Source: a virus
IMG/VR virus record: IMGVR_UViG_3300033489_000513
Direction: 5' to 3' (one strand)
Length of the DNA: 64,000 bases
Position numbers and translations under genes: made by a program. Below the pieces are notes generated by a model, which was given only the letters and a program-made list of their open reading frames with translations, was not told the origin of the DNA and made no database searches. This document shows positions 7,817-44,535 of this stretch, piece after piece. Position 1 is the first letter of the stretch; the number at the start of each line of letters is the position of its first letter.

Positions 7817-8500
7817 ATGGATGTTTTGAAAAAATGTCATCATTGTATGGAATATTATTTAGGGCAATTAATGAATCCAATGGCATATTGTCCGAAACCA
7901 GATTGTCAAAAGGTATGGAAGCGAGTTTTAGTTAGTATAATTCATCAAAGATACCATTTAATGGAGGACTTGGATGTTTGGTCTCCTACTTTGAAGGATG
8001 ATTATGGGTTTCCTCGAAGAGTCTGCCGGATTTGTGGGGGACTTCTTCGATATACTAAGAAAGGGCGCGTGTCTCAGTCGAGATATTGTGATGAATGTCG
8101 CGCCAAGGAGGGTGATGGATTATTTCGTAAAATATTTGCTATGTTTGAATGGAATGAAGCTCGCGCTGCATTTATGCGCCAAAAGAGAATTGCGTGGGAT
8201 GGTAAAGATGTTTATGAATGTGAAGGGTGTCACGAATTCTTTCCCGCATCTAAAGTAGATGTGCATCATATCAAACCCGTCCATACTCTCGATGAAACAA
8301 ACTATCGTCTTACGTGGGATCCTTCGAATTTCACGATTCGTTGTGCAAAATGCCATGGTATCGCACATCGAAAAGCGGAGAAGATTTCTCCTTCTGAATT
8401 GTACAAACAACAAATGAGAAAAGTCCACCTTTCATTGGATAGATTCTTGCCTTCAACGCAAGTTTTGAAAGAAATAAAAAAGGAAGAAGCGTCACGATAA
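7817..8500 (+). CDS. HNH endonuclease with Zn fingers
   Basis: CEGC...VDVHHIKPVH...DPSNF..RCAKCHGIAH. Confidence 0.85.
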   Translation: MDVLKKCHHCMEYYLGQLMNPMAYCPKPDCQKVWKRVLVSIIHQRYHLMEDLDVWSPTLKDDYGFPRRVCRICGGLLRYTKKGRVSQSRYCDECRAKEGDGLFRKIFAMFEWNEARAAFMRQKRIAWDGKDVYECEGCHEFFPASKVDVHHIKPVHTLDETNYRLTWDPSNFTIRCAKCHGIAHRKAEKISPSELYKQQMRKVHLSLDRFLPSTQVLKEIKKEEASR

Positions 8501-8541
8501 AGGCGAAAACTAGCGCTTTGAGTGAAACGATCATTCGCTTC
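8486..8541 (-). ncRNA. k-turn-closed guide-like sRNA kt1
   Basis: GAAGCG-AAU-GA-UCG [31 nt] CG-U-GA-CGCUUC; no own promoter, lies 7 nt past stop of ORF 8548-8871. Confidence 0.65.
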
Positions 8542-8547
8542 GAGAAT

Positions 8548-8871
8548 CTAACGTTTTCGGGTTGGTTTCTTAGAAACGGGTTTTGCTTTCAATGTAGAAG
8601 AGAGATCCGCAAATAAATTCTTTAGATTTTCATCAACCTGTGTAATCTCCGTTTTAAATTTCTTCTCAAGAGCTTCATCCCGTTTGATGGAAAGTTCATC
8701 TATTGAACCAAGTTTACGTTCAAAACGGGCACGATCTTCTTGAAGATCTGCGATAGCAGAATTAATGCCCGCCAAACTCTTTATATAAATTTCAACTTCT
8801 GCTTGGAGACTTTTAAATGCGTTTATATCAACTTTCTCAGTTTTATTTCGTTTAAAGAGATCCATATGCAA
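8548..8871 (-). CDS. coiled-coil hypothetical protein
   Basis: 107 aa, heptad pattern. Confidence 0.6.
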   Translation of the reverse strand: MHMDLFKRNKTEKVDINAFKSLQAEVEIYIKSLAGINSAIADLQEDRARFERKLGSIDELSIKRDEALEKKFKTEITQVDENLKNLFADLSSTLKAKPVSKKPTRKR

Positions 8872-8884
8872 ACCTTCTAAGTTT

Positions 8885-8903
8885 GTGAGAGATATCCTCT
8901 CAC
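8885..8903. promoter_or_regulatory. perfect dyad GTGAGAG-N5-CTCTCAC
   Basis: inverted pair of the genome-wide GTGAG half-site next to a TATA box. Confidence 0.55.
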
Positions 8904-8925
8904 GGATATAAAAAGATTGGGAAAA

Positions 8926-9471
8926 TTATTTACTTTTAAAATATTTGTTTTTTGAGAAACTCATCATAGTCGTGTCTCCTATTTGTGAGAAGAGATGCTG
9001 ATCCTTTGTATTATCGGACATCCATGTGGTCCACGTATATTCTTTAGGTGGCCAATCATAATGAGTTGGTGGCCATCTAGTGGGTTCGTGTGATGGGGGT
9101 TCGGGCGATGGGATAATATAGGGTTGAATGATAACTTTAACCGGTTCTGGTTTGAATGTTTCCACGGGAGTTTCTTTAGGTTTAGGAAGTTTATATCCAC
9201 GCCGATTGAAAATCTGGTGTAAGAAGGAGAAAACGAGGGATCCAATTCGATATCCAAACCCTGAACTCCGTTTTTGTTGGGTTAGAATAATATCGAGTTT
9301 CATATTTAACTCCGCTATTGCGCGGAAGAGCATTTCATCCATCTTTGGCGCGGGAGGAACGTTTTCACCAAGCATCCCACAAATTTTGCAAGGGGACTTT
9401 TCCCATTTCGCGCCACAACCTGGGCAATATTTAATGTCTGATGTCGATTCTTCTGAAATATGAATCACCAC
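8926..9471 (-). CDS. Zn-ribbon + Pro-rich hypothetical protein
   Basis: CPGC..CKIC N-terminus. Confidence 0.55.
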   Translation of the reverse strand: MVIHISEESTSDIKYCPGCGAKWEKSPCKICGMLGENVPPAPKMDEMLFRAIAELNMKLDIILTQQKRSSGFGYRIGSLVFSFLHQIFNRRGYKLPKPKETPVETFKPEPVKVIIQPYIIPSPEPPSHEPTRWPPTHYDWPPKEYTWTTWMSDNTKDQHLFSQIGDTTMMSFSKNKYFKSK

Positions 9472-9500
9472 AATGAGATAGTTCTCACAATTATAAAAAC

Positions 9501-9872
9501 TTACTTAATAATGAAGAAAAGAGATTCAAAGAATACAAATACAAATATCAACGTTATCAATAATTTCCAATACTTTAATTGTTTTTTATTTTTCTGGCTA
9601 TCCAAATGCAACTCCTGAAACTCCGCTTGTAATTGAACTAATTTCGAGTTTTGTTGTAGGATATATTCCTTATCTTCCTTTGCTCGTTGTGCGCTTATCT
9701 TTTGTTCTTCTTCTCGCATTTGTATGATATAATTTGAAGGATTTAATCCACCTAACCAATAGTGAATATCTGCACCGCAAGAAGTACAATAGCGAATGGT
9801 ATTTAGAACGAGATGCCCGCAGGCAGGACAATTATCTTTAGTTGTGTCTAGTTCAAACATATTATTCCCCAT
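9501..9872 (-). CDS. double Zn-ribbon, coiled-coil, C-terminal TM protein
   Basis: CPAC..CTSC; hydrophobic C-terminal 20 aa. Confidence 0.6.
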   Translation of the reverse strand: MGNNMFELDTTKDNCPACGHLVLNTIRYCTSCGADIHYWLGGLNPSNYIIQMREEEQKISAQRAKEDKEYILQQNSKLVQLQAEFQELHLDSQKNKKQLKYWKLLITLIFVFVFFESLFFIIK

Positions 9873-9900
9873 ATTTTTAAAAATAAAGAAAATTAAAAGA

Positions 9901-10155
9901 TTACTTTTCCTTTAGAATGAAAACAACTATAGGTCTCCCGCGCTTGCTATTTTGGGTAGGATATTTATCCACGATATTCCGATTCATTAATTTAGATAAT
10001 GTATCGTAAATCGTAGTCCTCGCAGTTTTGAGTTGGACTACTATATCCCCGCGAGTCATTGGACCTTTAGATCCCAAGAGTTCGACAATATCCTTCTCTA
10101 AATCCGAATTTAGGACATATTGATTTCCTTTCTGGTATATGGTTGAAATTACCAT
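9901..10155 (-). CDS. TrmB-like winged-helix transcription regulator
   Basis: GPMTRGDIVVQLKTARTTIYDTLSKLMNRNIV...KRGRP. Confidence 0.75.
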   Translation of the reverse strand: MVISTIYQKGNQYVLNSDLEKDIVELLGSKGPMTRGDIVVQLKTARTTIYDTLSKLMNRNIVDKYPTQNSKRGRPIVVFILKEK

Positions 10156-12328: not shown

Positions 12329-13120
12329 TTAGTCTCCTTCATAACTCTCTTCCTCGCTAACCCGAGGCGCTAAGAAATAAATGATCTTTCCCTTTTCTTT
12401 TACATCGGGGACGGAAATATCAAATTCAAATTTTAGAGGGGAGTTTTCCGCAATATTAAGCGTAACCTTATCTACAATCGAAGAAACCTTGAGGATATTC
12501 TTCAAGAACGACAAGGAAAATACGCCCCTCCCATCTTTCTGGATGTCTGCCGCTTCGAGATGATCTTGATCCAGTTGATACTCAATATCCCCAACTTCGC
12601 CTTCAGCAGTCATCTTGAGTCCATCTTTATTAATTTGAATTTCCAAAGTATCTTGGTAAATTTCTGCATCTTTGATTGCTTGATCCAAGATATCAATATC
12701 GAAGGTTACTTTTGCCTCGAATTTTACGTCTAATTCTGTGGAAGGAGGTATTTTTTCGGCATCAACATCAATAAGACGCAAGCTGAAAGTTCGAGTTCCA
12801 CGACCCTTCATTTGAACTTGGAATTTTTCGGACTCTTTCTGGTGCTTAAACTCAATCGCATCAGATCCGCCCGCGCGCTTCATAATTTTGGTCATATCTT
12901 CTAAGTTAATGCCCAATTTCACTTGCTCTTTGCATTCATATCCCCCATTAAAAAGTTCTTTGGGAAGAGTCATACTCATTAGGCATATATGACTTTCATC
13001 CATCGCGTCCAGTTTCAAGCCCTTTTCATCCGCCACAAAATAGGTTTCATCAATAATGGCTGAAACAGCATCGATTATGCCTTTCAGAAGTTTGGAATCT
13101 TGCATTTTAGCAGATAACAT
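12329..13120 (-). CDS. pcn: archaeal DNA polymerase sliding clamp PCNA
   Basis: KGIIDAVSAIIDE...LDAMDESHICLM...LGINLEDM..FSLSFLKNILK...NSPLKFEF...YFLAPR; start at MLSAK. Confidence 0.95.
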   Translation of the reverse strand: MLSAKMQDSKLLKGIIDAVSAIIDETYFVADEKGLKLDAMDESHICLMSMTLPKELFNGGYECKEQVKLGINLEDMTKIMKRAGGSDAIEFKHQKESEKFQVQMKGRGTRTFSLRLIDVDAEKIPPSTELDVKFEAKVTFDIDILDQAIKDAEIYQDTLEIQINKDGLKMTAEGEVGDIEYQLDQDHLEAADIQKDGRGVFSLSFLKNILKVSSIVDKVTLNIAENSPLKFEFDISVPDVKEKGKIIYFLAPRVSEEESYEGD

Positions 13121-13176
13121 AAAGGATCCTCTAAAAGTTCTATATGAGAAATTTAGACGTGGGAGTATTTTAATAT

Positions 13177-13195
13177 TTGTGAGAAGAGTTATTAA
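13177..13195 (+). promoter_or_regulatory. class A promoter TTGTGAGAAGAG-TTATTAA
   Basis: TATA 23 nt upstream of ligase ATG. Confidence 0.6.
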
Positions 13196-13218
13196 CCCGA
13201 ACATTTAATCAATGACAT

Positions 13219-14280
13219 ATGTTGGAACACGAATTCGAAATTTGTTGGGATGATCTAAAACCAATTCTCGCGGCTCACAAAGAATTTGCCGTGAAAGAGG
13301 AAGTAGTAAATGGACACTTCTTGAAGATCGTGTGTTATATTTATCAAGAGGAAGAAACTTTCGATTCTCCCATTGCGCGTGAACTTAGGGGAATCGTTTT
13401 CGATGAAGATGGGACTTGTATTTGCCGTCCCTTCCACAAATTCTTTAATGTGGGAGAAATCCAGATGAAAAAGACCGTTGAGCCAAACTGGGCCAAAGCA
13501 ACGTTCTCCCAGAAATGGGATGGGAGTATACTTATGCCTGTTTTATTGGATGGTAAAGTTTTTTGGAAAAGTCGGAAGAGTTTCTATTCTGATACCGTGG
13601 TAAAAGCAAAGCAATTTACTTGCCAATTAGAATATTTGGATCTTGTAATGAAATATTTGGAAAAAGGACAAACGCCTCTTTTTGAATTGGTAGGTCCTCA
13701 TAATCCTCTCGTTATTCAATATGAAAAAGATGATCTTGTTTTTCTCGCGGCTCGTGATATGAAATCGGGACATTATACTGAATTTTGCGATCAATTTCCT
13801 ATGAAATGGGTGGATGTCCCTGCGATGGAAGGTGTGGAAGGATTTGTCGTGTGGGACACTCAGGAACTCTATAAATTAAAAACGAAATGGTATATGGAAC
13901 GATTCCGCGTGACAATGGGAAAAAGTGTTCGATCTATCGTAGAAGCCGCCCTCGCGAATAAGATTGATGATATGCTTCCTTTGGTAACAACTCTCACGTG
14001 GAAAGAAGAAATCCAACAAATCGCCAAGAATGTATACTATGATTTGGATCAGAAGTTGACTGCAATTGAAGTTGCCTATGCATCCATTGATCATACTTTC
14101 TCCCAAAAGGATTTTGCAATGGACGTGAATGCCAAATATTCCTCTCTCTCCAAATACATTTTTATGCGAAGAGCAGGAAAAGACGAAAAATGTATTCAGA
14201 AAGTTAAAGAGGATATAGCGAGAGATTGGCGAAAATATATCGTTTCACCAGATAATCCCTTAGATCCAGAGGGAGATTAA
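13219..14280 (+). CDS. T4 Rnl1-like RNA ligase
   Basis: RELRGIVF..RPFHKFFNVGE, motif I KWDGS, FELVGPHNPLV, EGFVV, KLKTKWY. Confidence 0.85.
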   Translation: MLEHEFEICWDDLKPILAAHKEFAVKEEVVNGHFLKIVCYIYQEEETFDSPIARELRGIVFDEDGTCICRPFHKFFNVGEIQMKKTVEPNWAKATFSQKWDGSILMPVLLDGKVFWKSRKSFYSDTVVKAKQFTCQLEYLDLVMKYLEKGQTPLFELVGPHNPLVIQYEKDDLVFLAARDMKSGHYTEFCDQFPMKWVDVPAMEGVEGFVVWDTQELYKLKTKWYMERFRVTMGKSVRSIVEAALANKIDDMLPLVTTLTWKEEIQQIAKNVYYDLDQKLTAIEVAYASIDHTFSQKDFAMDVNAKYSSLSKYIFMRRAGKDEKCIQKVKEDIARDWRKYIVSPDNPLDPEGD

Positions 14281-14817: not shown

Positions 14818-15006
14818 ATGTCCAAGAAAGTTTCAGACCAGCCTCTCATCCGAAAGGGACCTAAATTTTTAGATGAAGAAATAGATGAAATTGCTCTTTC
14901 CAAATTGGGGAAATGTTTAAGGTGTGGGTGTGATAAGTCCCGAATGGGAAAATCTATATTCTGTAAAGAACATCAAATAACTCTTGAAGATGTGAAAGAT
15001 TTATGA
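14818..15006 (+). CDS. small Zn-finger protein
   Basis: CLRC...FCKEH. Confidence 0.55.
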   Translation: MSKKVSDQPLIRKGPKFLDEEIDEIALSKLGKCLRCGCDKSRMGKSIFCKEHQITLEDVKDL

Positions 15007-17813
15007 GCGATATAATAAAATGTGTATGTTGTAATTCTAACGAAAATGCACCATATACTTTACATGGGTATCCGTTCTGTGAGACTTGTTGTAATCTCGG
15101 ATATTATGTTTCCCCCGAATACAAATATCTAACCACATTAAATATATCTGAACGAATTGGTGCTTACAAAGAGGCCATATATGCTTACGTGCGGCGGTTC
15201 CGAAAAGAACATTGTACCCATTATATTACAATAGGAACGTTTGTATGTGGTATTACAATGAGAAATGGATTCGATTGTTGGGGTTGCGGGGCGTTTAACG
15301 CGAAAACGCCCGCTGAAAAGGAAAAGAAGTCTACTGATTGTCGGAAATGCGTTCATTGGTTCACGAAAAATCAAATATGTGATCAAATTCCTGATATTCA
15401 AGAGGATAATTGTTTGAAATTTATTGCGCGGGCGTGTGAAAACTGTGCAAACGAAAAAGCTCAAACATGTTATGGAGTAATAGGTCATTGTTTCGATTAT
15501 AATCTTTGGCAACCCCACAAGGAAATATCCTGCAGACATTGTGGGAAGTTTCATAGTTCAGGAGAGAGAACTTGTGATAATTGTGGGAGCAAGTGTGGGA
15601 TTGGAATATGTACCAAACATTCCCAGTGGACATCAAAAATAATAAAACAAGAAGAGAAACCAGTGAAGAAAAAGGAGGTTTGTGGAAATTGTGTGAAGTG
15701 GATGCAATGTCCCACGGGAGATTCCAACTATGGAAAATGTTCTGATCCTACAGGTTACGTAAGTAATCCTAGAAAGGATTGTACTCCTATGACTACTACC
15801 TGCTTCACGCTCCGCCCGATGAATGCCGTAAAACCGATTCAAGACAAGTTCACGGATTGTATCACGAATCATCTTTTTTCCGCGTGTTATGTAAAAAACA
15901 AAGAATGTCTCGAACAACCTAAATGTATCCTTTGTGGAGAACGCGTGTGTTATCTTCAATCTTATCATAGTAATAACGAACATTTATGCAAAAAATGTTT
16001 TGATGACGGAAAAGGTTGGGAGAAAGTGGAGAAACTCAAAGAAAAGCTAGAATTAATTCAACCTAAATCCTGCGGTATATGTATGCATTTTCATGAAGAT
16101 GCTTCCTTTAAAACAAAGGGTACGGATCTTGAAGGATATTGCGATGTTAAGAATAGAAGGATACCCGTGGGAAAGAAATGGGGTAACGCCTGCACGGAAG
16201 GATTTGTTAAAAAAAGACAGCCCTCGCCGCGTACCTGCGAGACTTGCGGGCACTTTCACATAGTAAACGATAAAGATTTTCCGCAGCGGGGTGGATATTG
16301 TGATGCGATGGCAGGTAAATCAAAAGAAGGTTATTTTACCATCGCCAAAGAACACTTGATTAACCTATGTTGTGTGGATGCGGATGGTATTAACCAATAC
16401 ATCCCAATTACTTCGCCAGTATGCGCGCGGTGTGGTGGTTCAGAACAGATAGTAGGCGAAATAGATATTGCGGAAGGACAACCGCCTCATCTCGTGAAAA
16501 TTTGTAAAATATGTTCCTCCAAATTAAACACGAAACAAGGACCTAGAAGTTGGTATTCAATATATCAAGAGGAAACCCGCGCGAGTAAAGTACGGCACTG
16601 CGATAAGGACAAACAAGTAGAACTAACCCAACCGTGCGTGAGATGTGGTAATGCATCAACTCATAAAGAATTTGCATTTGAGTGGAATGGAGAAATAAGC
16701 GAATCCACCCACATCCCGATATGTTACAAATGTTCGGAAGAATTTAAGGCAATAAAAACTAATTTATATTTCCAACAGCTTCGAGAAAAAGAGCGCGCGG
16801 CGGGAAGAATCTGGTACTGCGATAAATCTCCAAAAGAACAAAATAAATTTATGAAAGATTTATGTGATGAAATTATGACTCCGCAAATGTGGACATATGA
16901 ATGTACTGAATGGGGATCAACCAAAGAATGTGGGGATTGCTCGTGCCGTATAGAATACCCTTTCAAAAGCGGTGAACCAACCACAGATGAAGAGAAGATT
17001 AACTTGATTTGTCATTTCGATTGTGATGCGAAACATACCAAGAAATTTATCCGAATCAAAGAAAAGGAAGTGAAAATGAAAATGAAATGTCCAAATTGTG
17101 GAAAAATAGATGAAGCAGGACAAAAATATTGTGAAGGTTGTGGATCGCTTCTCCAAGATCCGCAAGTAGCGAAAGAAACCGCTGATTTGATGAAAGAAAA
17201 TGAATTGTTACTCAAGGAACAAGTGGAATATTTTGAAAAATGGCAGGGAGCGGAAGGGATAATAAAGAAGAATGATGAGACTATAAATGCATTAAATGAA
17301 AAAAATCAAGCATTAACAGAGGAGAATGCCAAATTGAAGCACAATGGTATCCCACGCCACTGCCATAAATGTATTGACCTCAAAATCGGGGAGTGGCCGT
17401 GTAAATATTGGCAACACGATGATACTTGGATGAATCCCTTTCATTTCCATTGCGCTAAACCCAAACACAAACCAAAGAAAACTACTTCCATCAATCATCT
17501 TCAGCGACAGATTAAAACCCACATACAACAAGTTAAATCTAAACAACATAAAATCGAGAATGAAGCAAAAAGAATCGTCCGCCAAATATATCGCGTTTGG
17601 AAAATAGTGCCAAATAATCTTTCATTTGGAGATTTTGAATATAAAGATAGTACTTACTTCTATTGGAAAGGTAATTATATTCTAAAATATGATACGGATG
17701 GTTTGTTTTTGAACTCTGTTGAAATCAAAGATTTCGAAAAATATGAAGAATGCAAACATCTCATCGAACCCGCCCTCCAAAAATATCTGGAAGAGAAACT
17801 TGCGGAGGGATAA
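15003..17813 (+). CDS. large multi-Zn-finger protein (936 aa)
   Basis: about 20 CxxC motifs, coiled coil near C-terminus. Confidence 0.75.
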   Translation: MSDIIKCVCCNSNENAPYTLHGYPFCETCCNLGYYVSPEYKYLTTLNISERIGAYKEAIYAYVRRFRKEHCTHYITIGTFVCGITMRNGFDCWGCGAFNAKTPAEKEKKSTDCRKCVHWFTKNQICDQIPDIQEDNCLKFIARACENCANEKAQTCYGVIGHCFDYNLWQPHKEISCRHCGKFHSSGERTCDNCGSKCGIGICTKHSQWTSKIIKQEEKPVKKKEVCGNCVKWMQCPTGDSNYGKCSDPTGYVSNPRKDCTPMTTTCFTLRPMNAVKPIQDKFTDCITNHLFSACYVKNKECLEQPKCILCGERVCYLQSYHSNNEHLCKKCFDDGKGWEKVEKLKEKLELIQPKSCGICMHFHEDASFKTKGTDLEGYCDVKNRRIPVGKKWGNACTEGFVKKRQPSPRTCETCGHFHIVNDKDFPQRGGYCDAMAGKSKEGYFTIAKEHLINLCCVDADGINQYIPITSPVCARCGGSEQIVGEIDIAEGQPPHLVKICKICSSKLNTKQGPRSWYSIYQEETRASKVRHCDKDKQVELTQPCVRCGNASTHKEFAFEWNGEISESTHIPICYKCSEEFKAIKTNLYFQQLREKERAAGRIWYCDKSPKEQNKFMKDLCDEIMTPQMWTYECTEWGSTKECGDCSCRIEYPFKSGEPTTDEEKINLICHFDCDAKHTKKFIRIKEKEVKMKMKCPNCGKIDEAGQKYCEGCGSLLQDPQVAKETADLMKENELLLKEQVEYFEKWQGAEGIIKKNDETINALNEKNQALTEENAKLKHNGIPRHCHKCIDLKIGEWPCKYWQHDDTWMNPFHFHCAKPKHKPKKTTSINHLQRQIKTHIQQVKSKQHKIENEAKRIVRQIYRVWKIVPNNLSFGDFEYKDSTYFYWKGNYILKYDTDGLFLNSVEIKDFEKYEECKHLIEPALQKYLEEKLAEG

Positions 17814-18342: not shown

Positions 18343-18456
18343 ATCCCCATTTTTGTCCGAATGTTCCTTTTTTTGTCCGAACCTAGAAAATTATTATAAG
18401 GCTCCCGCCTAATAGTGATCTGCTCGCTGTCGTTCTCACAATTTGGAGGAACATTT

Positions 18457-20610
18457 GTGAATGACCAAATACGCACACTAATTTTATCCTTGAAAGAAGT
18501 TCCCATGGAATCTAAAGAGTGGGGTGAAAAATTCACCGAAATTTGCCAAGAAAGTCTGCTCATCAAAGATGATAATATTGAACGAGAGCGACTTCTGAAA
18601 GTTCTCGCGGATGCAACGAAATTGAGTCAAAATGCTATCAAGAAAGAATTAACGAAGCGATGGGAGGAACTCGCGCCTCCCCCACAGAAAACGGAAATTG
18701 TAACGAGCGATGAACTCGAAGAGGAAGATGAAGAAGATTTTGATGATAAAGTTCCCCTCGTCCAATATCGGACGGGGGATTCGTATTTATTCGAGTGGTT
18801 TAATACTGGCATCTTGATGCGACAAACAAGGAGAAAAACGACCACACGTGATTATTGTTGGAAATGGAATAGCTTCCAACTTGATTTTATTTACGATGGC
18901 GAATTTAAAAATTACATTGCATATGATTTTACGATAAATGGGATTCCATACCAATATATTACATCAAAACATATAGCTTCCCGGTTGTCCAATTTTAATC
19001 CCATCCGTAATTGGAGTCACATTTTAGAAGTAATGATTGAACTCTATGCGAATAAATTCGCGGTAACAATCCCTCATCGATTATATGGTAGATTTTGTGG
19101 TTATACTTCTGACGGATTTCAATTACCAGATAAATTCCATTTTCCCGCTTCAACAACCGAAACAATTCAAAGCATTCACAAAAATATCCTGAATATCACG
19201 AAACCTCCCGTCATACCTTACGAAGAAATTAAGCAAAAAGTAATTAATCTCTATAATGCAACCCACATCCGAATGAAGGATCTCCTATTCGCCTGGGCGA
19301 TGGTGAGTTATCTCGAAACCGCTCTTCTTCCTTATACGAATGTGCGGATGTGGTTTGCCCTTTTCGCGCCAAGCGGGGCTACGGGAAAGACAAAAGCTTT
19401 AAAAAGTGTGACGTGGAAATTTTGGAATAACATGGATGGAAAAAAGGAAGTTCTCTCGAAGGATAACGCGATGTCAGAATCCCGCCTTCAAGAATATCTC
19501 GCGGCTGATGCATTTCCAAAAGTTATCGATGATTGTGGGGAATTGGGGGAAACTTGTATGAGTACCATTAAAACGTATTGCACGGAAGATTCGGGATTTT
19601 ATCGGAAATCCTCAGATCAGTCAATTAAAATTAATGCTCCCCTCATCGCGCCTCTCGGATTCACGTTTAATACTATCCCTACTATGTTTTTTGAAGAAGC
19701 ATTCCTCACTCGTGGCATAATTATACTCGCAGACCGGCATTTTAGCGCAGAAGAAACAGAAGAATATCTCACAGCATATAATAATTTACGAGAAGGATTA
19801 GCTGGGCAATATATTATCCACTGTATGGAAGAACGTTTCTCCACTTTCAAGGAAATTCTGGATTTATTTGAACAAATGCCGAAACCCCCATCCCATTTCA
19901 AAGATCGTCAACGACCGATTTGGAAATTGCTCTGTTTGGGAGCTACTTTTTTTCAAATGTTTTTTGGGCAATCTCTCGACATTCAAAAGCTCCTTCCTGA
20001 AGCTATCGAGTATATGGATAAACTCGGAGACGAAGAACTATTTTCTTTCGTAATTGAGATGCGGAATTGTTTTGAAGCAGGAGATGGAGTTAAACCAAAA
20101 TGGTTGAAAACGGGGATTTTTGAAATAACTACCGTGAATGATGAACCGGCGTATACCTTTTCAGCATCAGCATATTATGATATTTGCGCATTTCTCCGCA
20201 AGCCATACAAAGAAAAACTTTCTTTTACGAACATTGAACAGAATCTTAAAAAACGATGGCCAGGAACGAAATATAAAAACGTTAGAACTAGAAATACTAA
20301 ATCTCCAGTTCACCAAATTGTTATTCCAAAATCTGATATAGATATTACTAATCCACTCGATTCTGTACAAGATGTGTTAACTGCTGACCCAACGCATATT
20401 GAAAAAGGGGAAAGAGTTTTAAAAGAAATGTACAAAGAATCGGAATATAAATCCTTCGATTTAGATACTTTCCGCGAGAGATTGAAATTAGATTTGCCCG
20501 AAACGTCCATCGAAGCAGTAATTCATACTCTTCTCAATATGGGAAAAGCTAAAAAGTTTGTTGTGGAAAATATAAGTCCCGCGAATTATGAGGGGGAAAA
20601 TGAAAATTGA
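18457..20610 (+). CDS. P-loop NTPase, putative replicative helicase (SF3/DUF927-like)
   Basis: GTG start after GGAGG; Walker A-like APSGATGKT, Walker B-like VIDD, GFTFN sensor-like motif, C-terminal wHTH-like segment. Confidence 0.55.
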   Translation: MNDQIRTLILSLKEVPMESKEWGEKFTEICQESLLIKDDNIERERLLKVLADATKLSQNAIKKELTKRWEELAPPPQKTEIVTSDELEEEDEEDFDDKVPLVQYRTGDSYLFEWFNTGILMRQTRRKTTTRDYCWKWNSFQLDFIYDGEFKNYIAYDFTINGIPYQYITSKHIASRLSNFNPIRNWSHILEVMIELYANKFAVTIPHRLYGRFCGYTSDGFQLPDKFHFPASTTETIQSIHKNILNITKPPVIPYEEIKQKVINLYNATHIRMKDLLFAWAMVSYLETALLPYTNVRMWFALFAPSGATGKTKALKSVTWKFWNNMDGKKEVLSKDNAMSESRLQEYLAADAFPKVIDDCGELGETCMSTIKTYCTEDSGFYRKSSDQSIKINAPLIAPLGFTFNTIPTMFFEEAFLTRGIIILADRHFSAEETEEYLTAYNNLREGLAGQYIIHCMEERFSTFKEILDLFEQMPKPPSHFKDRQRPIWKLLCLGATFFQMFFGQSLDIQKLLPEAIEYMDKLGDEELFSFVIEMRNCFEAGDGVKPKWLKTGIFEITTVNDEPAYTFSASAYYDICAFLRKPYKEKLSFTNIEQNLKKRWPGTKYKNVRTRNTKSPVHQIVIPKSDIDITNPLDSVQDVLTADPTHIEKGERVLKEMYKESEYKSFDLDTFRERLKLDLPETSIEAVIHTLLNMGKAKKFVVENISPANYEGENEN

Positions 20611-21240: not shown

Positions 21241-21250
21241 GATTCAGGCA

Positions 21251-21327
21251 CGGTTCATCCCCGCACTCAAAATATACAATGCTTTCTCCATTACTTTTCG
21301 GTTCATCCCCGCACATATGGGCGAGAC
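21251..21327 (-). CRISPR. degenerate type I-E-like repeat-spacer-half repeat
   Basis: CGGTTCATCCCCGCAC at 21251-21266 and 21299-21314, 32-nt interval; second copy extends to a 29-nt I-E-like repeat. Confidence 0.4.
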
Positions 21328-21555
21328 CCTAACATCTCGACCTATTTATCCATAACATCGAGATGCATAACCATCGCCTTTGTATGGGGTTCCAGTGTTA
21401 TAGACTGAGGGCATAACCGTATGCCCGCTATCCCTCCCGCGAATGCGTTTGGGACTACCTTTCGGATGATAGATTTTTTGCTTTGTGACAAAGCGAAGAT
21501 AATTCAGGAGTTTTTTCGACTCGTTTTTGAGTTACAATTTTTATATTATTTCCTC

Positions 21556-21885
21556 CTATTGAGGCACTTTAAAGCACGAATTATGTTTTGTAAAACCAAG
21601 GCGTTTGCCGAAATCTTTGGAATATTTTGCGGAGGATGTATTAAATAATATATTTTTAGATTCTCCCGATTCGCTAGCCCATAAGATAAGAAGGAGAAAA
21701 TCCCGCCCGTGTTTTTTATTGGGAATCCACCCAAAGATATCAAAAAACCAAGAATCGTCATCTATCTGCCAATCATCATCGTCATCCGTTACCATCTTAC
21801 AAGTATAACGATCCCACGTCACTTCAGGAAGGTCTTTGCGTAAACCTTTCATAATATCTTGAATAACATAATCAATTTTAGTCAT
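21556..21885 (-). CDS. hypothetical protein
   Basis: 109 aa, starts 19 nt downstream of kt2. Confidence 0.6.
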   Translation of the reverse strand: MTKIDYVIQDIMKGLRKDLPEVTWDRYTCKMVTDDDDDWQIDDDSWFFDIFGWIPNKKHGRDFLLLILWASESGESKNILFNTSSAKYSKDFGKRLGFTKHNSCFKVPQ

Positions 21886-21977: not shown

Positions 21978-21994
21978 TTGTGAGAATATTTAAA
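21978..21994. promoter_or_regulatory. bidirectional TTGTGAGAATA-TTTAAA promoter
   Basis: TTTAAA is 26 nt from + ATG 22021 and 23 nt from the 5' end of kt2 on the minus strand. Confidence 0.55.
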
Positions 21995-22020
21995 TATTTG
22001 TTCCTAAAAGAGATTATCAT

Positions 22021-24398: not shown

Positions 24399-25100
24399 TT
24401 AGATGTGAGAACATTTAAAAGTTTGTTGTTTGATATATCCAAAACTTCCACGTAATAATTTTGGTTTCACGATTGTAAATTTCCCTAATTCATGTATTAA
24501 TCGCATAACTTTATCTAAAGAAGGTTCGGGGAGATTACAGTTTTTCGTATCAAATCCAACATATACTCGCATAGGATCTATATTCCGAACCATATCTACG
24601 AGTTTTTCTAAATCAAATTCCAGGATTGGTTCGATTGTCACAATATCAATATTCCCCGTTTGGATCGCGAGGGCATATCTCACAGAAGGAGAGGGAGCTT
24701 TAGAAATGAGATTATATCCTACATCCCGATTGGTTTCTAATGTAATTCCCCGCCAAACATTCTTGGGCCAATCATATTGAGAGAATGCAGATGGTTTTTT
24801 GGTTTGAAAAAAGAATTGTTTGTGATATAAATCGCTTACTCGTTTTAAGATTAATTTCATCCATTCTGGTTCTGCAAAGGAAAAATCCCCGCTGGCCCAC
24901 GCCCAAATAAATTGATCTCCCGAAGTAGTAGGGAGAGGTTGTCGCAATCGTTCAGGGTGGAAATGGGGCGTAAAATAATAACAACGTTCACAATTATGAA
25001 GCTGGCGTTTAGCCTGAGCTTGGAAGGATTTTACACAATATACGCATCCAAATAAACAACCTTGCCCAACGCTCCACCTTTTTACTGCGTCCGAATACAT
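24399..25100 (-). CDS. DUF5131/Gp37Gp68-like radical SAM protein
   Basis: GCLFGCVYC (CxxxCxxC), FAWASGDF, FQTKKP, VTIEPIL. Confidence 0.7.
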   Translation of the reverse strand: MYSDAVKRWSVGQGCLFGCVYCVKSFQAQAKRQLHNCERCYYFTPHFHPERLRQPLPTTSGDQFIWAWASGDFSFAEPEWMKLILKRVSDLYHKQFFFQTKKPSAFSQYDWPKNVWRGITLETNRDVGYNLISKAPSPSVRYALAIQTGNIDIVTIEPILEFDLEKLVDMVRNIDPMRVYVGFDTKNCNLPEPSLDKVMRLIHELGKFTIVKPKLLRGSFGYIKQQTFKCSHI

Positions 25101-27140: not shown

Positions 27141-27326
27141 TCACAAGTCTTTTTGCCTATTGGATAAATCCCCCCATTTCCAATTCACTTCGTTAATAGG
27201 CCGGAGGGAAATAAGAAATACTTTATCTTCGCCTTCTTCTTTACACGGCCAAAGGTAGAATTTTTCTACACTTCCAAAGTATTTATCCAATTTTTTAAGG
27301 AGATCCTTTTCGAGTTGTTCGTTCAT
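27141..27326 (-). CDS. hypothetical protein
   Basis: 61 aa, starts 9 nt downstream of kt4. Confidence 0.5.
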   Translation of the reverse strand: MNEQLEKDLLKKLDKYFGSVEKFYLWPCKEEGEDKVFLISLRPINEVNWKWGDLSNRQKDL

Positions 27327-40039: not shown

Positions 40040-40444
40040 TTAATAATAAATACCTTCATTAAATGAGATATCCGCAAGCTGGGTTTCGTTTAAATCTATA
40101 CAATAACTTGCTTTCCATTTTGCGAAATTTAAGGGTTGCAATTGTTCTTTATGGTAAAGCGGTAATGCCTGCGTGATCTCATCAAAATCATATTGATAGG
40201 AACAATCAAAAAATTCGCAGATGCCGTGCATAAAATAATCGTGAACAATGCGTCCCTCACAGAGAGGACAAAGCATTTCATCATAAAGATCTTTGGGGCG
40301 TGCTCCCTCCGATTGGTTGTAAAATCCAATCTCGATTCCAGCCGCATAGTTCTCGCTCCAACTTCCTAACTTCCTAAAGAAGGAAATTCGTGCTCGATCC
40401 CACCACGTCAGCGGGTGAACGCGGGACTTCCGTTTCTTTGCCAT
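40040..40444 (-). CDS. Zn-ribbon hypothetical protein
   Basis: CPLC..C..FDC; downstream of kt9. Confidence 0.55.
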   Translation of the reverse strand: MAKKRKSRVHPLTWWDRARISFFRKLGSWSENYAAGIEIGFYNQSEGARPKDLYDEMLCPLCEGRIVHDYFMHGICEFFDCSYQYDFDEITQALPLYHKEQLQPLNFAKWKASYCIDLNETQLADISFNEGIYY

Positions 40445-40504
40445 CGATATTTCACATCTTGCTCTGTTAGTTGTTTCGCGATTTCAATTATTCTGACTTT
40501 TGGA

Positions 40505-40556: not shown

Positions 40557-40600
40557 ATATGATGATTGTTGTGAGAAGTTTTATACTTATCGGAAAAAAA

Positions 40601-41672: not shown

Positions 41673-41948
41673 TCATTTTTGGGTATTATAAAAACGTTGG
41701 TAAGCTTTGTGCATTAATTGGTGGTGTTCCTTGCGACATTTCGGACATCGTTTACAATAATAACCCACAAAATACTGCTTACATTCAATACATAACCAAG
41801 TTCTCTTTCGTCCCAATCCAGTCCGATATTTATGCCCGTTTGACCTGCGGCATCCATCACAGATCGGACTTGCCTTTGCGATAAACGGAGCCTTGCAGCG
41901 CGGACAAATAGTATGGTGATCCATATTTAACTTCCCAAAAGAGAGCAA
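41673..41948 (-). CDS. Cys-rich basic hypothetical protein
   Basis: several CxxC; downstream of kt10; start uncertain. Confidence 0.45.
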   Translation of the reverse strand: MLSFGKLNMDHHTICPRCKAPFIAKASPICDGCRRSNGHKYRTGLGRKRTWLCIECKQYFVGYYCKRCPKCRKEHHQLMHKAYQRFYNTQK

Positions 41949-41999: not shown

Positions 42000-42232
42000 C
42001 AGATAAAGATTGTTGTGAGAAGTTTTATACTTATCGGATCGGATTACTTTTCTTATGGACCCCGCTCTTTCTTCAAAGTATCCACGAGGAGAGTAGTCGT
42101 CTTCAATATAGACTCAATGTGATTGACCATTGTCCGCAACTCGGCTGCGAGTCCTCCAAGTTCTCTGAGAATCTTTTCTGTATATTCAAGATTATTGATT
42201 ATAACCATTTTAAATTCATCCTATTTGTCATA

Positions 42233-42430: not shown

Positions 42431-42665
42431 TCTCCAATGCCTCTGCTACGATTTGATCGAACATTTCTAATTCTTCCCGTTGTTGTTTCAACGCCTTTTT
42501 CTTGATGTTGAAGTAAATCTGCGGTACAAACGCCCCATCGCCTTGATTTCTTCGCCACAATGCCGATGCGAGACACATAATTTCTCCGTATCCGTATTTT
42601 TCCCCCAATTCTTTGACAGATAATACTTGTTGTTTGATAAATTCCTTTGGAGATGTGTACGGCAT
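42423..42665 (-). CDS. conserved phage-type hypothetical protein
   Basis: GEKYGYGEIMCLASALWR...GAFVP. Confidence 0.6.
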   Translation of the reverse strand: MPYTSPKEFIKQQVLSVKELGEKYGYGEIMCLASALWRRNQGDGAFVPQIYFNIKKKALKQQREELEMFDQIVAEALENE

Positions 42666-42762
42666 AAAAAAAAGTTTACTCCTTCAATTTTTTAGGGGTT
42701 TCATTTTTATATTTCCTTGAAATTAACAAAGGAATAACATATTAAAAATGGTTTGTGAGAAC

Positions 42763-43278: not shown

Positions 43279-43347
43279 AAAACTTCTTAAGTAGAGGTAA
43301 TATAAGAATGGGAAAATATAAAGGTTTGTGAGAGGAACGTAAAAAAA

Positions 43348-43683
43348 TTAAATGGGGGTTACATTATTTAATATTTCGAGCAGAGATTTCCCAATGCCTG
43401 TTTGAATTTTGGTATAGCTCATAGTGTCTCCGCAATCCTTCGCGATCTCGGAAAGTAGGGGGAAAAGACGGGATTCAATCAAATCTAATCCAATAATAGA
43501 ATAATGTTGAATCATTCCCGCAAGACCCTCTTCTGTTTGGAGATAAGCGAGTATTTTTAATCCTATTTTCCGTCTCTTTTCTTCAGATTCAGGATCTTGG
43601 GCACACATTGTTTTAAAAAAGGACCAATTTTGGAGGATATTATATAACTCGTTCATATGCATACACTTCAATTGTTTGAACAA
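43348..43683 (-). CDS. hypothetical protein
   Basis: true start probably an internal Met just downstream of kt11. Confidence 0.5.
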   Translation of the reverse strand: MFKQLKCMHMNELYNILQNWSFFKTMCAQDPESEEKRRKIGLKILAYLQTEEGLAGMIQHYSIIGLDLIESRLFPLLSEIAKDCGDTMSYTKIQTGIGKSLLEILNNVTPI

Positions 43684-43745
43684 TCACGAATCTATGGAAT
43701 TGAGTAAAATCAATGAAAATATGTTAACACGATCATCTTGTTCAA
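43676..43745 (-). ncRNA. k-turn-closed guide-like sRNA kt11
   Basis: UUGAACAA-GAU-GA-UCG [41 nt] CG-U-GA-UUGUUCAA (compensatory G-C to A-U versus GAGCAA/UUGCUC); promoter 43757-43773. Confidence 0.78.
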
Positions 43746-43774
43746 GAGGGAAGTTATTGTGAGAACATTTAAAG

Positions 43775-44047
43775 TTATGTATCTTTTTTTATTTTCTTTT
43801 TGAATATCTTGAAAAAAAGAACTAACACCCAGAAGATCATCACGGGTAAGAGAAGGAGGACCGTGACCCAATCTGCGACCAACGAAAAATATGCCAAGAA
43901 TAAGATCTGACCAATCAGAATCCCGATCGCTCCTATCATACTGAAACTATCAATACTATCCCTATTTTTCACTATCGCAACAATGGAAGGTATGGTCCCA
44001 ATAAAGAGCGATAATGTTGCGATATTAGACAAGATAGAGATATCCAT
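43775..44047 (-). CDS. PQ-loop/SemiSWEET-like 3-TM protein
   Basis: TIPSIVAIVKNRDSIDSFS followed by two more TM helices. Confidence 0.5.
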   Translation of the reverse strand: MDISILSNIATLSLFIGTIPSIVAIVKNRDSIDSFSMIGAIGILIGQILFLAYFSLVADWVTVLLLLPVMIFWVLVLFFKIFKKKIKKDT

Positions 44048-44107
44048 GAAGGAATATTAGCGGGAGAAAATATAAAGATTGTGAGAAAAAGATAAAAAAC
44101 CGTCAAA

Positions 44108-44308
44108 CTATCCCTTATCAGGATATAATTTCTCGTCTTCCTTCAACCATATGAGGAAGGGCTCTTTCTCTGCGGGGATATGAGCGTGAGCCGCCCGTGT
44201 GAGTAATTGGATAATTTCGGGAGAGGAGTTCTTGAAAACTTCCAATGCGCCCGTGTCACTCAAACCATCCTCTATGGCGCTTTTAACCAACATATATAAT
44301 GTCATCAT
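44108..44308 (-). CDS. hypothetical protein
   Basis: 66 aa downstream of kt12. Confidence 0.5.
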   Translation of the reverse strand: MMTLYMLVKSAIEDGLSDTGALEVFKNSSPEIIQLLTRAAHAHIPAEKEPFLIWLKEDEKLYPDKG

Positions 44309-44348
44309 TTAGATCAAGGGTATCTTTTGGAGATGCCGATACTTTGTA

Positions 44349-44422
44349 TGAGCAATCACGAAAAAGGTGTCTTTCATAATTCATAAACTTGAATAAACAT
44401 ATGAACCCGATCATCTTGCTCA
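44349..44422 (-). ncRNA. k-turn-closed guide-like sRNA kt12
   Basis: UGAGCAA-GAU-GA-UCG [47 nt] CG-U-GA-UUGCUCA; promoter 44436-44450. Confidence 0.75.
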
Positions 44423-44468
44423 ATAGGAAGAAGGATGTGAGAATATAAATAATTTGTGGAAAAAGGAT

Positions 44469-44535
44469 GAGCAATCACGAAAGAAATTCAAGCAATATCA
44501 TAACATTATCAAAAGTGAACCCGATCATTTTGCTC
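44469..44535 (-). ncRNA. k-turn-closed guide-like sRNA kt13
   Basis: GAGCAA-AAU-GA-UCG [42 nt] CG-U-GA-UUGCUC then UUUUU; promoter 44549-44565; no ORF before the next promoter. Confidence 0.78.

Follow-up and report, generated by a model that had tools for sequence, protein, structure and literature searches.

Described k-turn RNAs and related units

Box C/D k-turns are unfolded in metal ions alone and fold on binding of L7Ae (PMC4382518). Archaeal C/D sRNA genes that lie in sense orientation at the 5′ ends of ORFs are co-transcribed with them and mostly encode orphan guides, and it has been proposed that RNP formation protects such 5′-end sRNAs, which are then cut out of the transcript (PMC6009581). 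According to two further reports, L7Ae binds k-turns in archaeal 5′ leaders and thereby regulates translation; those described there are single operators on l7ae and a few other genes (PMC5539422, PMC6298567). In TIGR units, CNA and YG boxes frame two spacers of 9 nt each; the units lack a k-turn and need the Nop-domain protein Tas, and independent promoters have been considered possible for them (PMC12045711; bioRxiv 10.64898/2026.09.09.750476). Finally, Snu13 binds the B/C k-turn of eukaryotic U3 snoRNA with high affinity, and a second protein dedicated to U3, Rrp9/U3-55K, is then recruited (PMC5499572).

A family of k-turn-closed hairpins in a virus-like element

The 64,000-nt stretch of DNA analyzed here (the window) comes from a virus-like element and carries, on its minus strand, 13 k-turn-closed RNA hairpins and one degenerate copy. 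They are spread across 36 kb, and each is oriented like the genes. Every element consists of a closing helix of 4-8 bp, a 3-nt bulge (GAU in eight copies, AAU in five), GA-U-CG, a loop of 26-47 nt, CG-U-GA and the second helix strand, for a total of 51-74 nt. The copies are listed below with their scores in a covariance model built from the family (R1).

8486..8541, minus strand: kt1, GAAGCG-AAU-GAUCG-31 nt-CGUGA-CGCUUC, no promoter, 6 nt past the stop codon of ORF 8548-8871, T6 directly after it; 42.9 bits
21904..21965, minus strand: kt2, stem GGUAG/CUACU, loop 39 nt, ORF 21556-21885 beginning 18 nt downstream; 51.8 bits
24332..24388, minus strand: kt3, stem GACCA/UGGUC, loop 34 nt, followed by more CTCACA promoters; 47.7 bits
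27335..27394, minus strand: kt4, stem UGACC/GGUUA, loop 37 nt, no promoter, tnpB stop codon 12 nt before it and ATG of ORF 27141-27326 8 nt after it; 41 bits
28773..28824, minus strand: kt5, stem GCCC/GGGC, loop 31 nt, own promoter, then the tnpB promoter with no intervening ORF; 45 bits
28869..28923, minus strand: degenerate 14th copy, AACCC-AA-GAUCG-33 nt-CAUGA-GGGUU, bulge of 2 nt, A in place of G at position 4n, promoter lacking; 12.7 bits
28926..28992, minus strand: kt6, stem AUGACUC/GAGUCAU (7 bp), loop 40 nt, promoter of its own, another promoter downstream with no intervening ORF; 41 bits
33609..33675, minus strand: kt7, stem (G)GAGCAA/UUGCUC(U), loop 40 nt, ORF 33336-33572 36 nt downstream; 52.5 bits
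35258..35308, minus strand: kt8, stem GAGCAA/UUGCUC, loop 26 nt, ORF 34691-35215 42 nt downstream; 48.6 bits
40505..40556, minus strand: kt9, stem GAGCAA/UUGCUC, loop 27 nt, ORF 40040-40444 60 nt downstream; 50 bits
41942..42000, minus strand: kt10, stem GAGCAA/UUGCUC, loop 32 nt, core variant AGUGA (mismatch at position 5n), ORF 41673-41924 17 nt downstream; 53.9 bits
43676..43745, minus strand: kt11, stem (UU)GAACAA/UUGUUC(AA), loop 41 nt, first ATG 13 nt downstream and in frame with ORF 43348-43683; 58.1 bits
44349..44422, minus strand: kt12, stem GAGCAA/UUGCUC, loop 47 nt, ORF 44108-44308 40 nt downstream; 55.1 bits
44469..44535, minus strand: kt13, stem GAGCAA/UUGCUC, loop 42 nt, then T5 and the kt12 promoter; 59 bits

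The pattern TGATCG-N(20-50)-CGTGA matched 12 times, always on the minus strand, against 0.74 matches expected, and none of 100 shuffled sequences reached 12. The 13th copy is kt10, which has AGTGA where the others have CGTGA. R1 recovered exactly these 13 copies at 41-59 bits, while the next best match scored 16.7 bits. Six copies have the same stem, GAGCAA/TTGCTC, and the remaining stems are GAACAA, GAAGCG, GGTAG, GACCA, TGACC, GCCC and ATGACTC. Across the helix, 94% of cells are paired, compared to 27-54% when the partner strand is slid by 1-3 columns; changes on both sides occur at all six helix pairs, and the covariation score was reached in none of 500 shuffles. Because the family is seen in a single replicon, its only known source, all of this covariation is among paralogues. 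The core agrees with the k-turn consensus in its 3-nt bulge with U at L3, tandem G·A/A·G pairs and U·U pair; its C-G pair is flipped relative to box C/D. The NC stem (U·U, C-G, G-C) is the same in 12 of the 13 copies, kt10 being the sole exception.

These results bear out much of the initial annotation, which had proposed 13 minus-strand elements of one architecture (its start coordinates agree with ours to within 1 nt), stems that change and still pair, a core invariant but for one base in kt10, an additional degenerate copy and a box C/D k-turn with a flipped pair. No Rfam entry was matched, and a search for relatives found none. The family is real and undescribed. That the structure works at the RNA level is supported by the compensatory helix changes, by copies that are strand-specific and co-oriented with genes, and by promoter coupling in 11 of the 13.

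Promoters and downstream ORFs

A promoter of the form TATA-N3-CTCACA precedes these 11 copies:

21979..21998, minus strand: kt2 promoter (TATA region and CTCACA), 13 nt before the stem
24404..24423, minus strand: kt3 promoter, 15 nt before the stem
28838..28857, minus strand: kt5 promoter, 13 nt before the stem
29004..29023, minus strand: kt6 promoter, 11 nt before the stem
33689..33708, minus strand: kt7 promoter, 13 nt before the stem
35322..35341, minus strand: kt8 promoter, 13 nt before the stem
40570..40589, minus strand: kt9 promoter, 13 nt before the stem, with TATAAAA at -29 to -23 from the first stem G
42014..42033, minus strand: kt10 promoter, 13 nt before the stem
43758..43777, minus strand: kt11 promoter, 12 nt before the stem
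44436..44455, minus strand: kt12 promoter, 13 nt before the stem
44550..44569, minus strand: kt13 promoter, 14 nt before the stem

Counted from the base that opens the stem, the TATA element is centered at about -26, which is the standard archaeal geometry. Since the distance from CTCACA to the stem is fixed at 11-15 nt, transcription is expected to start at the first base of the helix.

Small ORFs begin 8-60 nt downstream of nine of the 13 copies. No such ORF follows kt3, kt5, kt6 or kt13, and for the last three another promoter intervenes. Most copies are not genes in their own right: nine form the 5′ leader of a small ORF, and another is located where a gene ends.

Host and gene content

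The host is a Lokiarchaeon (Lokiarchaeia, Asgard archaea), assigned through a PCNA that shares 82-86% identity with its cellular counterpart in CR_4-like MAGs. These MAGs have an L7Ae gene, and a virus-like element with an archaeal host has host L7Ae available to it. The leader of the host's L7Ae gene is conserved and GAUGA-rich, and its motif differs from the viral k-turn core.

Among about 120 ORFs in the window we detected no L7Ae, Nop, fibrillarin or Tas-like gene. The initial annotation had stated that the window has neither a Nop-domain nor a Cas effector; the former agrees with our search, but a TnpB (OrfB_IS605 with a Cas12f-like TNB) is encoded between kt5 and kt4. Counting a TnpB remnant as well, four copies have TnpB sequence nearby. 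None of 23 TnpB homologue loci elsewhere in Lokiarchaeia has a k-turn element, so a link between TnpB and the family is unlikely.

Composition of the loops and search for targets

The loops are rich in U (44%, p = 2e-9) and poor in G (10%, p = 2e-6), and CAU occurs within the first 10 loop nucleotides in nine of 13 copies compared to a background of 12% (p = 2e-6). A pyrimidine tract is anchored at the loop 3′ end and not at Shine-Dalgarno distance from CAU. Runs of T5-T6 are found within five loops (kt2, kt3, kt5, kt7 and kt12). The loops fold no better than shuffled sequence (z -2.2 to +1.0) and cannot be aligned, with a loop-to-loop identity of 0.52 versus 0.515 for shuffled sequence. In the 55-nt flanks upstream, identity between copies reaches 84%, and there is an abrupt change in similarity at either edge of the loop. 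The loops had been called unique spacers; they are indeed not alignable with each other, but neither are they free sequence.

Complementarity of the loops was at chance level within the window, at paired sites on DNA, at the cognate start regions, in Lokiarchaeal 16S/23S rRNA, in 17 Lokiarchaeal tRNAs and in G001. The same result was obtained when four loops were compared with 154 Lokiarchaeia genomes of the host order. Internal C′/D′ boxes were absent from all 13 copies.

Comparison with the described systems

The viral RNAs resemble archaeal box C/D sRNAs in their terminal helix, 3-nt bulge with a purine at L2 and U at L3, tandem G·A/A·G pairs, U·U pair, size and unstructured interior. Both kinds occur with their own promoters or, as in Pyrobaculum "category 1" (PMC6009581), at the 5′ end of an ORF, with which the viral RNAs, too, would be co-transcribed. 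They differ in box C (AUGAUCG versus RUGAUGA) and box D (GUGA versus CUGA), in the flipped G-C pair and one extra G-C pair, and in having no C′/D′ boxes, 12-nt guide spacing or rRNA/tRNA complementarity. A canonical example from the host lineage (G001, AUGAUGA-12 nt-CUGA-4 nt-UGAUGA-13 nt-CUGA, GCC/GGC stem) has all the features that the viral family lacks.

With TIGR units the family shares variable but always palindromic stems, short motifs beside the stem and a variable interior (PMC12045711; bioRxiv 10.64898/2026.09.09.750476), as well as flexible positions in a virus or mobile element. On the other hand, the units described here have a full k-turn, satisfy the CNA-9-YG rule at one end of only one of 13 units, are dispersed, mostly with their own promoters, and are accompanied by no detectable Nop-like protein in the window. 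As in the archaeal mRNA leaders described in PMC5539422 and PMC6298567, a stem-loop lies in the 5′ leader near the start codon and the k-turn is of a type predicted to need protein for folding. Unlike those leaders, this is a 13-member family with large loops, in which some units lack an ORF and another sits at a gene 3′ end.

Human U3 snoRNA box C (...GAUGAUCGU...) and box B (...GCGUGA...) presumably form the same core, GA-U-CG / CG-U-GA, as the viral family. We treat this likeness as a lead only. The topology is inverted, the U3 C stem being capped and its NC stem opening to the rest of the RNA, and U3 is a single-copy chaperone RNA.

Alternative explanations

The initial annotation saw in these elements a repertoire of guide RNAs with a constant scaffold and a variable guide. 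In such guide or antisense RNAs the k-turn would be the constant scaffold and the loop a programmable spacer, pairing in trans with nucleic acids of the host or of rival MGEs or with late viral ones, with L7Ae and a Nop5/fibrillarin-like or Tas-like effector or by plain antisense block of start-codon regions. The sharp borders of the loops are consistent with this, as are the three or four units without a downstream ORF, the parallel with TIGR stem-loops and the position of CAU, which is expected of antisense to AUG regions. The loops should also be accessible, being long, unstructured, U-rich and G-poor, and orphans make up 28% of genuine archaeal C/D guides (PMC6009581). Against it stand the missing C′/D′ boxes and CNA-9-YG periodicity, chance-level complementarity in every test run, the lack of a candidate effector gene among the ORFs and a pyrimidine tract placed without regard to CAU. 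We now consider a guide function rather unlikely; what stands of the earlier interpretation is an RNA-level k-turn structure in an archaeal virus-like element, but not separate-gene status for most copies.

Another possibility is that k-turn RNAs, numerous and strongly transcribed, titrate the L7Ae of the host, disturbing assembly of its ribosome, C/D RNPs and RNase P and progressively de-repressing k-turn-led viral mRNAs. A copy number of at least 13, strong consensus promoters on 11 of the copies and the ORF-less units would suit such a sponge or timer, as would the known autoregulation of archaeal L7Ae through leader k-turns and the conserved GAUGA-rich leader of the host gene. An invariant NC stem and long constrained loops would both be unnecessary, however, and the viral core is unlike the host motif, which makes this quite improbable. 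More doubtful still is attenuation, in which the U-rich loop and helix modulate archaeal transcription termination in or just after the element: T5-T6 runs occur inside five loops and directly past kt1 and kt13, but their number is, by our estimate, what 44% U predicts, most copies lack one after the helix, archaeal termination is not known to require hairpins and the k-turn core is left unexplained. The least credible explanation is a DNA-level repeat such as a MITE/PATE-like element, an IS200/605 end, a recombination site or an inverted-repeat operator. The ends are inverted repeats, TnpB sequences lie nearby and Pyrobaculum has MITE-like elements resembling C/D sRNAs (PMC6009581). Yet compensatory changes and a spacing that varies over 26-47 nt do not fit a protein-binding site, all copies occupy one strand in register with promoters, target-site duplications and shared internal sequence are absent and nothing similar occurs at the TnpB homologue loci.

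Proposed mechanism

The explanation we favor, at an even chance, is a k-turn RNP module that depends on L7Ae and is specific to the virus, an offshoot of archaeal box C/D sRNA architecture. The dedicated promoter class would start transcription at the first closing-helix base, and both helix strands, the bulge and the GA/GA pairs would form a box C/D-type k-turn to which host L7Ae probably binds. The k-turn should fold only upon this binding because its 3b·3n pair is U·U. The NC stem is dispensable for L7Ae but is nearly invariant here, which suggests that a second protein reads it; no candidate was found in the window. The RNP would clamp, and may protect, both ends of the RNA while exposing the loop. 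A purely cis-acting element, by comparison, needs neither a compositionally constrained 26-47 nt loop nor ORF-less units, which counts against a module that acts in cis alone.

On nine transcripts the RNP would sit 8-60 nt ahead of the start codon as a 5′-end cap or roadblock and might act as an L7Ae-dependent translation brake, although the variable distance to the start codon means that occlusion is possible for some copies only. Trimming might also release it as a stable sRNA, as happens to archaeal C/D sRNAs co-transcribed with mRNAs, and free sRNPs may arise from three or four units (kt13, kt6, kt5 and perhaps kt3) together with the 3′-terminal kt1.

A family of k-turn-closed elements

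A scan of the 64-kb window for TGATCG-N(20-50)-CGTGA returned 12 matches against 0.74 expected by chance, all 12 of them on the minus strand, and a 13th copy (kt10) carries AGUGA in place of CGUGA. The order of parts is the same in each of these small RNA elements (kt1 to kt13): closing helix, 3-nt bulge (GAU in eight copies, AAU in five), GAUCG, loop, CGUGA (AGUGA in kt10) and closing helix. The helix is GAGCAA/UUGCUC in 6 of the 13 copies and GAACAA, GAAGCG, GGUAG, GACCA, UGACC, GCCC or AUGACUC in the others; all of these pair. In A2, the 82-column alignment of the copies, standard pairs fill 94% of cells as compared to 27-54% when the 3' partner is slid, both-side changes occur at all six helix pairs, and the covariation score was matched by none of 500 shuffles. 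At the sequence level, the 13 copies fit the pattern of a putative k-turn (an L7Ae-class binding site), with a helix, a 3-nt bulge, tandem sheared G.A/A.G pairs and a non-canonical helix: helix-NAU-GA...GA-helix occurs in 13 of 13, and 1b.1n and 2b.2n are invariant.

The coordinates and anatomy that the initial annotation had proposed for the 13 elements were correct by pattern scan, flanks, alignment and R1, the covariance model built from the 13 copies. Such a model had been suggested as a check, and R1, run unfiltered, separates the copies (41-59 bits) from all else (16.7 bits or less). One degenerate copy was also found:

28869-28923, degenerate 14th copy directly after kt6, with a 2-nt bulge and CAUGA (12.7 bits with R1)

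The novelty of the family was upheld by Rfam, where nothing matched at the gathering score and no known family matched any element at E values up to 10. Two motif scans of IMG/VR gave 0 matches and 21 chance matches without closing helices, respectively, and motif scans of JGI metagenomes and GTDB genomes gave 0 matches each. Over 151 genomes of the host order (Lokiarchaeia, assigned via PCNA), the sole R1 match, at 30 bits, lacked the helix and was rejected; R1 found nothing in the Skoll virus or in other DUF2828-bearing virus-like contigs and loci. The literature search found no k-turn or C/D-like RNA family of an archaeal virus, and we know of none. The family is real, RNA-level, promoter-coupled and previously undescribed.

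Promoters and genomic position

A conserved promoter precedes 11 of the 13 elements, consisting of an A/T-rich TATA box, 3-4 nt and CTCACA(A), and the distance from the end of CTCACA to the closing helix in these 11 is 11-15 nt (mode 13). The TATAAAA of kt9 lies at -29 to -23 relative to the first G of the helix, which is the canonical archaeal distance from TATA to start. Given this spacing, the closing helix is the predicted 5' end of the transcript. The same class-A promoter (TATA-N3-CTCACA) also fronts element-free genes, among them tnpB, a 260-aa gene and PCNA; by our reading of the promoters, roughly half of class A bears an element.

Nine of the 13 elements are located 8-60 nt ahead of the start codon of a small ORF without assigned function. 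For kt13, kt6 and kt5 the next feature is another promoter, not an ORF, and T5 follows kt13; kt3 has no ORF of at least 30 aa inside the 130 nt downstream. The two elements without a promoter are kt1, which begins 6 nt past a stop codon and has T6 after it, and kt4, which is 12 nt past the tnpB stop codon and 8 nt ahead of the next ATG. A 34-aa ORF that starts 50 nt beyond the end region of kt1 is included in the nine. Since elements can be 5'-terminal, 3'-terminal, intercistronic or stand-alone, the module is autonomous as to position. Paralogy among the genes downstream of the elements was considered, and none was found.

CTCACA is strongly over-represented in the window (52 minus-strand and 26 plus-strand copies) and occurs in three fixed promoter-like arrangements. 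Class A, which is linked to the kt elements, is TATA-N3-CTCACAA; class B is CTCACAAACC followed directly by TTTATATT; class C, in minus-strand reading, is a T-run terminator and then TTGTGAG-AAGACC-TTATAAG-(C/T)GAGAC. As a set they suggest a temporal promoter code or, alternatively, a site that a viral transcription factor recognizes. A further site near kt9 looks as if both scaffold ends had been joined after loss of the interior, and it lacks a 3' helix strand; either a remnant or chance similarity could account for it.

6193, 24328, 39620, 43332 and 44085, minus strand, examples of CTCACA
49.8-59.3 kb (49803-59307, plus-strand coordinates), about ten copies of class C
40452-40464, minus strand, GAGCAAGATG joined to TGA, 45 nt downstream of kt9 and 8 nt ahead of the ATG of ORF 40040-40444

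Relation to known k-turn RNAs

The archaeal box C/D k-turn is the structural match: its bulge (L2 purine, L3 U), G.A/A.G pairs and U.U pair are identical in the kt elements, whereas the pair that follows them is reversed from G-C to C-G, and one more G-C comes after it. In place of box C (RUGAUGA) and box D (CUGA), all copies have AUGAUCG and GUGA. Box C agrees with the consensus over its first five bases and departs from it at positions 6-7, as box D does at its first base (D1); the changes at position 6 and D1 go together, and the pair is kept. The loops also differ from archaeal C/D sRNAs in lacking internal D'/C' boxes and guides of about 12 nt: none of the 13 loops has a UGA or UGAUGA at +12 from box C or at -12 from box D. 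In the host lineage, by contrast, one canonical C/D sRNA has D'/C' boxes and guides of 12-13 nt; it gave the sole strict C-D'-C' match in the 4.3 Mb of G001, a CR_4-like Lokiarchaeia genome:

L116 1497-1552 (G001:C203), GCC-G-AUGAUGA-12 nt-CUGA-CGCG-UGAUGA-13 nt-CUGA-GGC

TIGR stem-loop arrays share with the kt elements a variable palindromic stem, short boxes, a variable interior and occurrence in viruses. They are defined by two CNA-9 nt-YG intervals no more than 15 nt apart between palindromic stems and by the Nop protein Tas. However, no kt unit has both intervals (the 5' interval of kt5 alone fits, as CGA-ACCUCCAUU-UG), and no Pfam Nop match that would indicate Tas was obtained among about 120 window ORFs. 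The elements are best filed as a variant of the box C/D / L7Ae k-turn RNA kind, and not as members of the C/D sRNAs or of TIGR.

The eukaryotic U3 B/C motif probably has the same GA-U-CG/CG-U-GA core. Ions on their own leave box C/D k-turns unfolded, and L7Ae binding folds them (PMC4382518); by analogy, the kt elements are predicted to be L7Ae-dependent. Stem II, the non-canonical helix beyond the G.A pairs, is reported as required for eukaryotic Nop56/58 assembly in Watkins 2002, as cited in PMC4382518, and the title of that work states that its identity decides the secondary proteins on the Snu13-RNA complex; PMC5499572 describes one such case, in which U3 B/C recruits Rrp9. This stem is altered in the kt elements, where a non-standard form is conserved in 12 of 13 copies. 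As L7Ae does not require conservation of stem II, our main mechanistic inference is that a dedicated second protein would read it.

The closest precedent for the genome layout is found in archaeal C/D sRNA genes that overlap the 5' ends of ORFs in sense. They are co-transcribed and are mostly orphan guides, and two fates have been suggested for them: release from the transcript as protected RNPs, or recruitment of L7Ae that hampers translation (PMC6009581). A second precedent is regulation by L7Ae through k-turns in 5' leaders, as described in PMC5539422 and PMC6298567, with which the 9 of 13 kt elements that precede an ORF by 8-60 nt can be compared. The leader of the host L7Ae gene itself has two GAUGA motifs about 40-50 nt ahead of the start codon, an arrangement consistent with L7Ae autoregulation. 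Mimicry of this leader by the kt elements was rejected as its motif differs from the viral core.

L022 4240-4290 and L023 4070-4115 (host MAGs), 5' leader of the host L7Ae gene, conserved CUUGGCACAYAAGCCGAUGAUUAAUGAUGGGG

Loops and the guide hypothesis

Identity between loops (0.52) is that of shuffled loops (0.515), while the 55-nt upstream flanks are up to 84% identical and the core is invariant; similarity therefore ends exactly at the loop borders. Compared to same-strand intergenic DNA, the loops are rich in U (44% versus 31%, p = 2e-9) and poor in G (10.5% versus 18%, p = 2e-6), and 9 of the 13 have CAU in their first 10 nt (12% background, p = 2e-6). They do not fold better than shuffled sequence. 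The loops are thus non-random despite being unalignable. Plus-strand mini-ORFs starting in the loops were discarded as a candidate because they do not keep a constant frame with respect to the conserved core and have arbitrary lengths.

The initial annotation had interpreted the elements as a repertoire of guide RNAs. This reading is favored by the abrupt loss of similarity at the loop borders, by the composition of the loops and by the ORF-less units, but the searches for targets were negative throughout, in the window, in rRNA and tRNA of the host order and in host-order genomes. Complementarity of the loops to either strand of the window was at chance level, with longest exact runs of 10-13 nt, and loop ends treated as paired DNA sites (dual, TIGR-like guides) gave 4 cases in the window versus 0-9 in shuffles. 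Pairing in cis between loops and their cognate downstream start regions was no better than with 85 other start regions. Against two LSU rRNAs, one SSU rRNA and 17 tRNAs, the longest runs equaled those of shuffled loops, where the rRNAs (23S, 16S) are Lokiarchaeal and the tRNAs are those of G001, and so represent genomes of the host order and not the true host. Methylation guides for these rRNAs and tRNAs were rejected on the same chance-level complementarity. BLAST of the kt12-kt13 segment against G001 was at chance level, and BLAST of kt5, kt6, kt12 and kt13 against 154 host-order genomes gave scattered AT-rich matches only, with no recurring locus and with per-genome E values (3e-4 to 0.05) at chance level. 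The claim that the RNAs act as guides found no support in these searches, and we regard it as rather unlikely that the loops are guides. A fuller version is unlikely: a programmable repertoire with one promoter per unit, in which an L7Ae k-turn scaffold with a private stem II code would carry loops that direct an effector to host or rival nucleic acids, possibly to start-codon regions.

With regard to an effector, a Pfam scan of about 120 window ORFs gave no L7Ae, Nop, fibrillarin or other known k-turn partner. Feature and atlas searches with three mid-sized neighboring proteins returned DUF559/Bro-N-like, radical-SAM/GP88-like and unnamed clusters only, and the atlas look-ups of these proteins returned no Nop-like family. 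The earlier statement that the window has no Nop-domain or Cas effector therefore holds for Nop, by Pfam, but has to be qualified for the other half, as TnpB, a relative of RNA-guided nucleases, is encoded between kt5 and kt4. R1 gave no match at E values up to 0.6 on 23 Lokiarchaeal loci with a 50-59% identical TnpB, and so the adjacency of kt5 and kt4 to tnpB looks incidental. A TnpB omega-RNA or IS200-605 end was rejected because position is not conserved and 0 of the 23 homologue loci match R1. A link to Y RNA and Ro, raised by a TROVE-like gene 0.9 kb upstream of kt6, was likewise rejected: there is no similarity to the Ro site, and 11 copies are elsewhere.

A second, internally deleted tnpB is located just downstream of the kt2-led ORF, in which residues 2-29 and 378-415 of the intact TnpB (27408-28667) are fused, at 39-46% identity. 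Beside it, GTGCGGGGATGAACCG is present in its only two copies in the window; its 3' part presumably resembles the end of type I-E/I-F CRISPR repeats. This pair could be the remnant of a mini-array or an IS end.

21360-21544, minus strand, tnpB remnant
21249-21266 and 21297-21314, minus strand, two exact copies of GTGCGGGGATGAACCG, 48 nt apart in a convergent intergenic region

The replicon and its host

Short minus-strand ORFs crowd the window, which is part of a contig of 145,402 nt that has also been assembled from run SRR10376092. Recognizable genes encode PCNA, TnpB, a TROVE-like DUF2828/vWA protein, a T4 Rnl1-like RNA ligase, a Thg1-like enzyme, an ERCC4 nuclease, HNH endonucleases and an ArdC-like protein.

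12329-13204, minus strand, PCNA, 82-86% identical to cellular PCNAs of CR_4-like Promethearchaeota (Lokiarchaeia) MAGs
13219-14280, plus strand, 29871-31388, minus strand, and a Thg1-like ORF among 48-44308, RNA-repair-like gene set
15003-17813 (936 aa) and 18415-20610 (731 aa), plus strand, two large ORFs without family assignment

The identity of PCNA to its CR_4-like cellular counterparts suggests that it was captured recently from the host; within the host order, G001 alone reaches 82% and the remaining genomes 46% or less. In MAGs such as CR_4, whose cellular PCNAs are 84-86% identical to the viral one, the gene has primase, GINS and ribosomal protein genes as neighbors and L7Ae is encoded 6 kb away; the host lineage thus encodes L7Ae. 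As annotated, the viral PCNA ORF exceeds its homologues by about 28 codons. Because a class-A promoter is located inside this extension (CTCACA at 13183), the true start is probably downstream of the listed one.

The RNA-repair-like set comprises the T4 Rnl1-like ligase, a Thg1-like 3'-5' polymerase (Pfam 2e-29, PHROG 2e-70), the TROVE-like DUF2828/vWA protein and an HD-domain protein. DUF2828 homologues with 45-50% identity are common in Lokiarchaeal MAGs and occur in the Lokiarchaeota virus Skoll; no homologue of the TROVE-like protein exceeds 50%. The 936-aa protein is an ORFan that matched only itself among 5.8 billion proteins and has a weak TFIIB-type zinc-ribbon signal at residues 694-723. 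Megablast of the replicon against known phages gave no match. As the 64-kb window has no structural hallmark gene, the replicon is likely, short of proven, to be a virus, and the safe term is a virus-like mobile element of a Lokiarchaeon.

Proposed mechanism and significance

The mechanism that we prefer, to which we give an even chance when its four steps are taken together, is the following. Transcription would begin at the closing helix, and L7Ae, probably with a reader of stem II, would clamp the ends to yield a nuclease-resistant RNP. This RNP would either stay as a 5' module that controls stability and translation of small early-type genes or leave as an sRNP, and its U-rich loop would be held single-stranded for a partner.

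Among archaea, the lineage of the host is the closest to eukaryotes, in which the k-turn RNPs of L7Ae/Snu13 (snoRNPs, U3, U4) diversified. With its invariant, non-standard stem II, the viral family may have a second protein of its own, much as U3 B/C has Rrp9. In having one promoter per unit and swapped loops, the family is also similar to the TIGR stem-loop guides, which were described recently. Should the loops be guides, this would be a new programmable system; a programmable repertoire would join CRISPR and TIGR as a third natural guide architecture, and would possibly be the missing link from TIGR stem-loop guides to the k-turn-bearing C/D sno/sRNAs. If they are not, the family would be a clean natural case of a virus that has equipped a whole class of its transcripts with L7Ae-dependent 5' modules, and also an example of a very regular archaeal viral promoter code.
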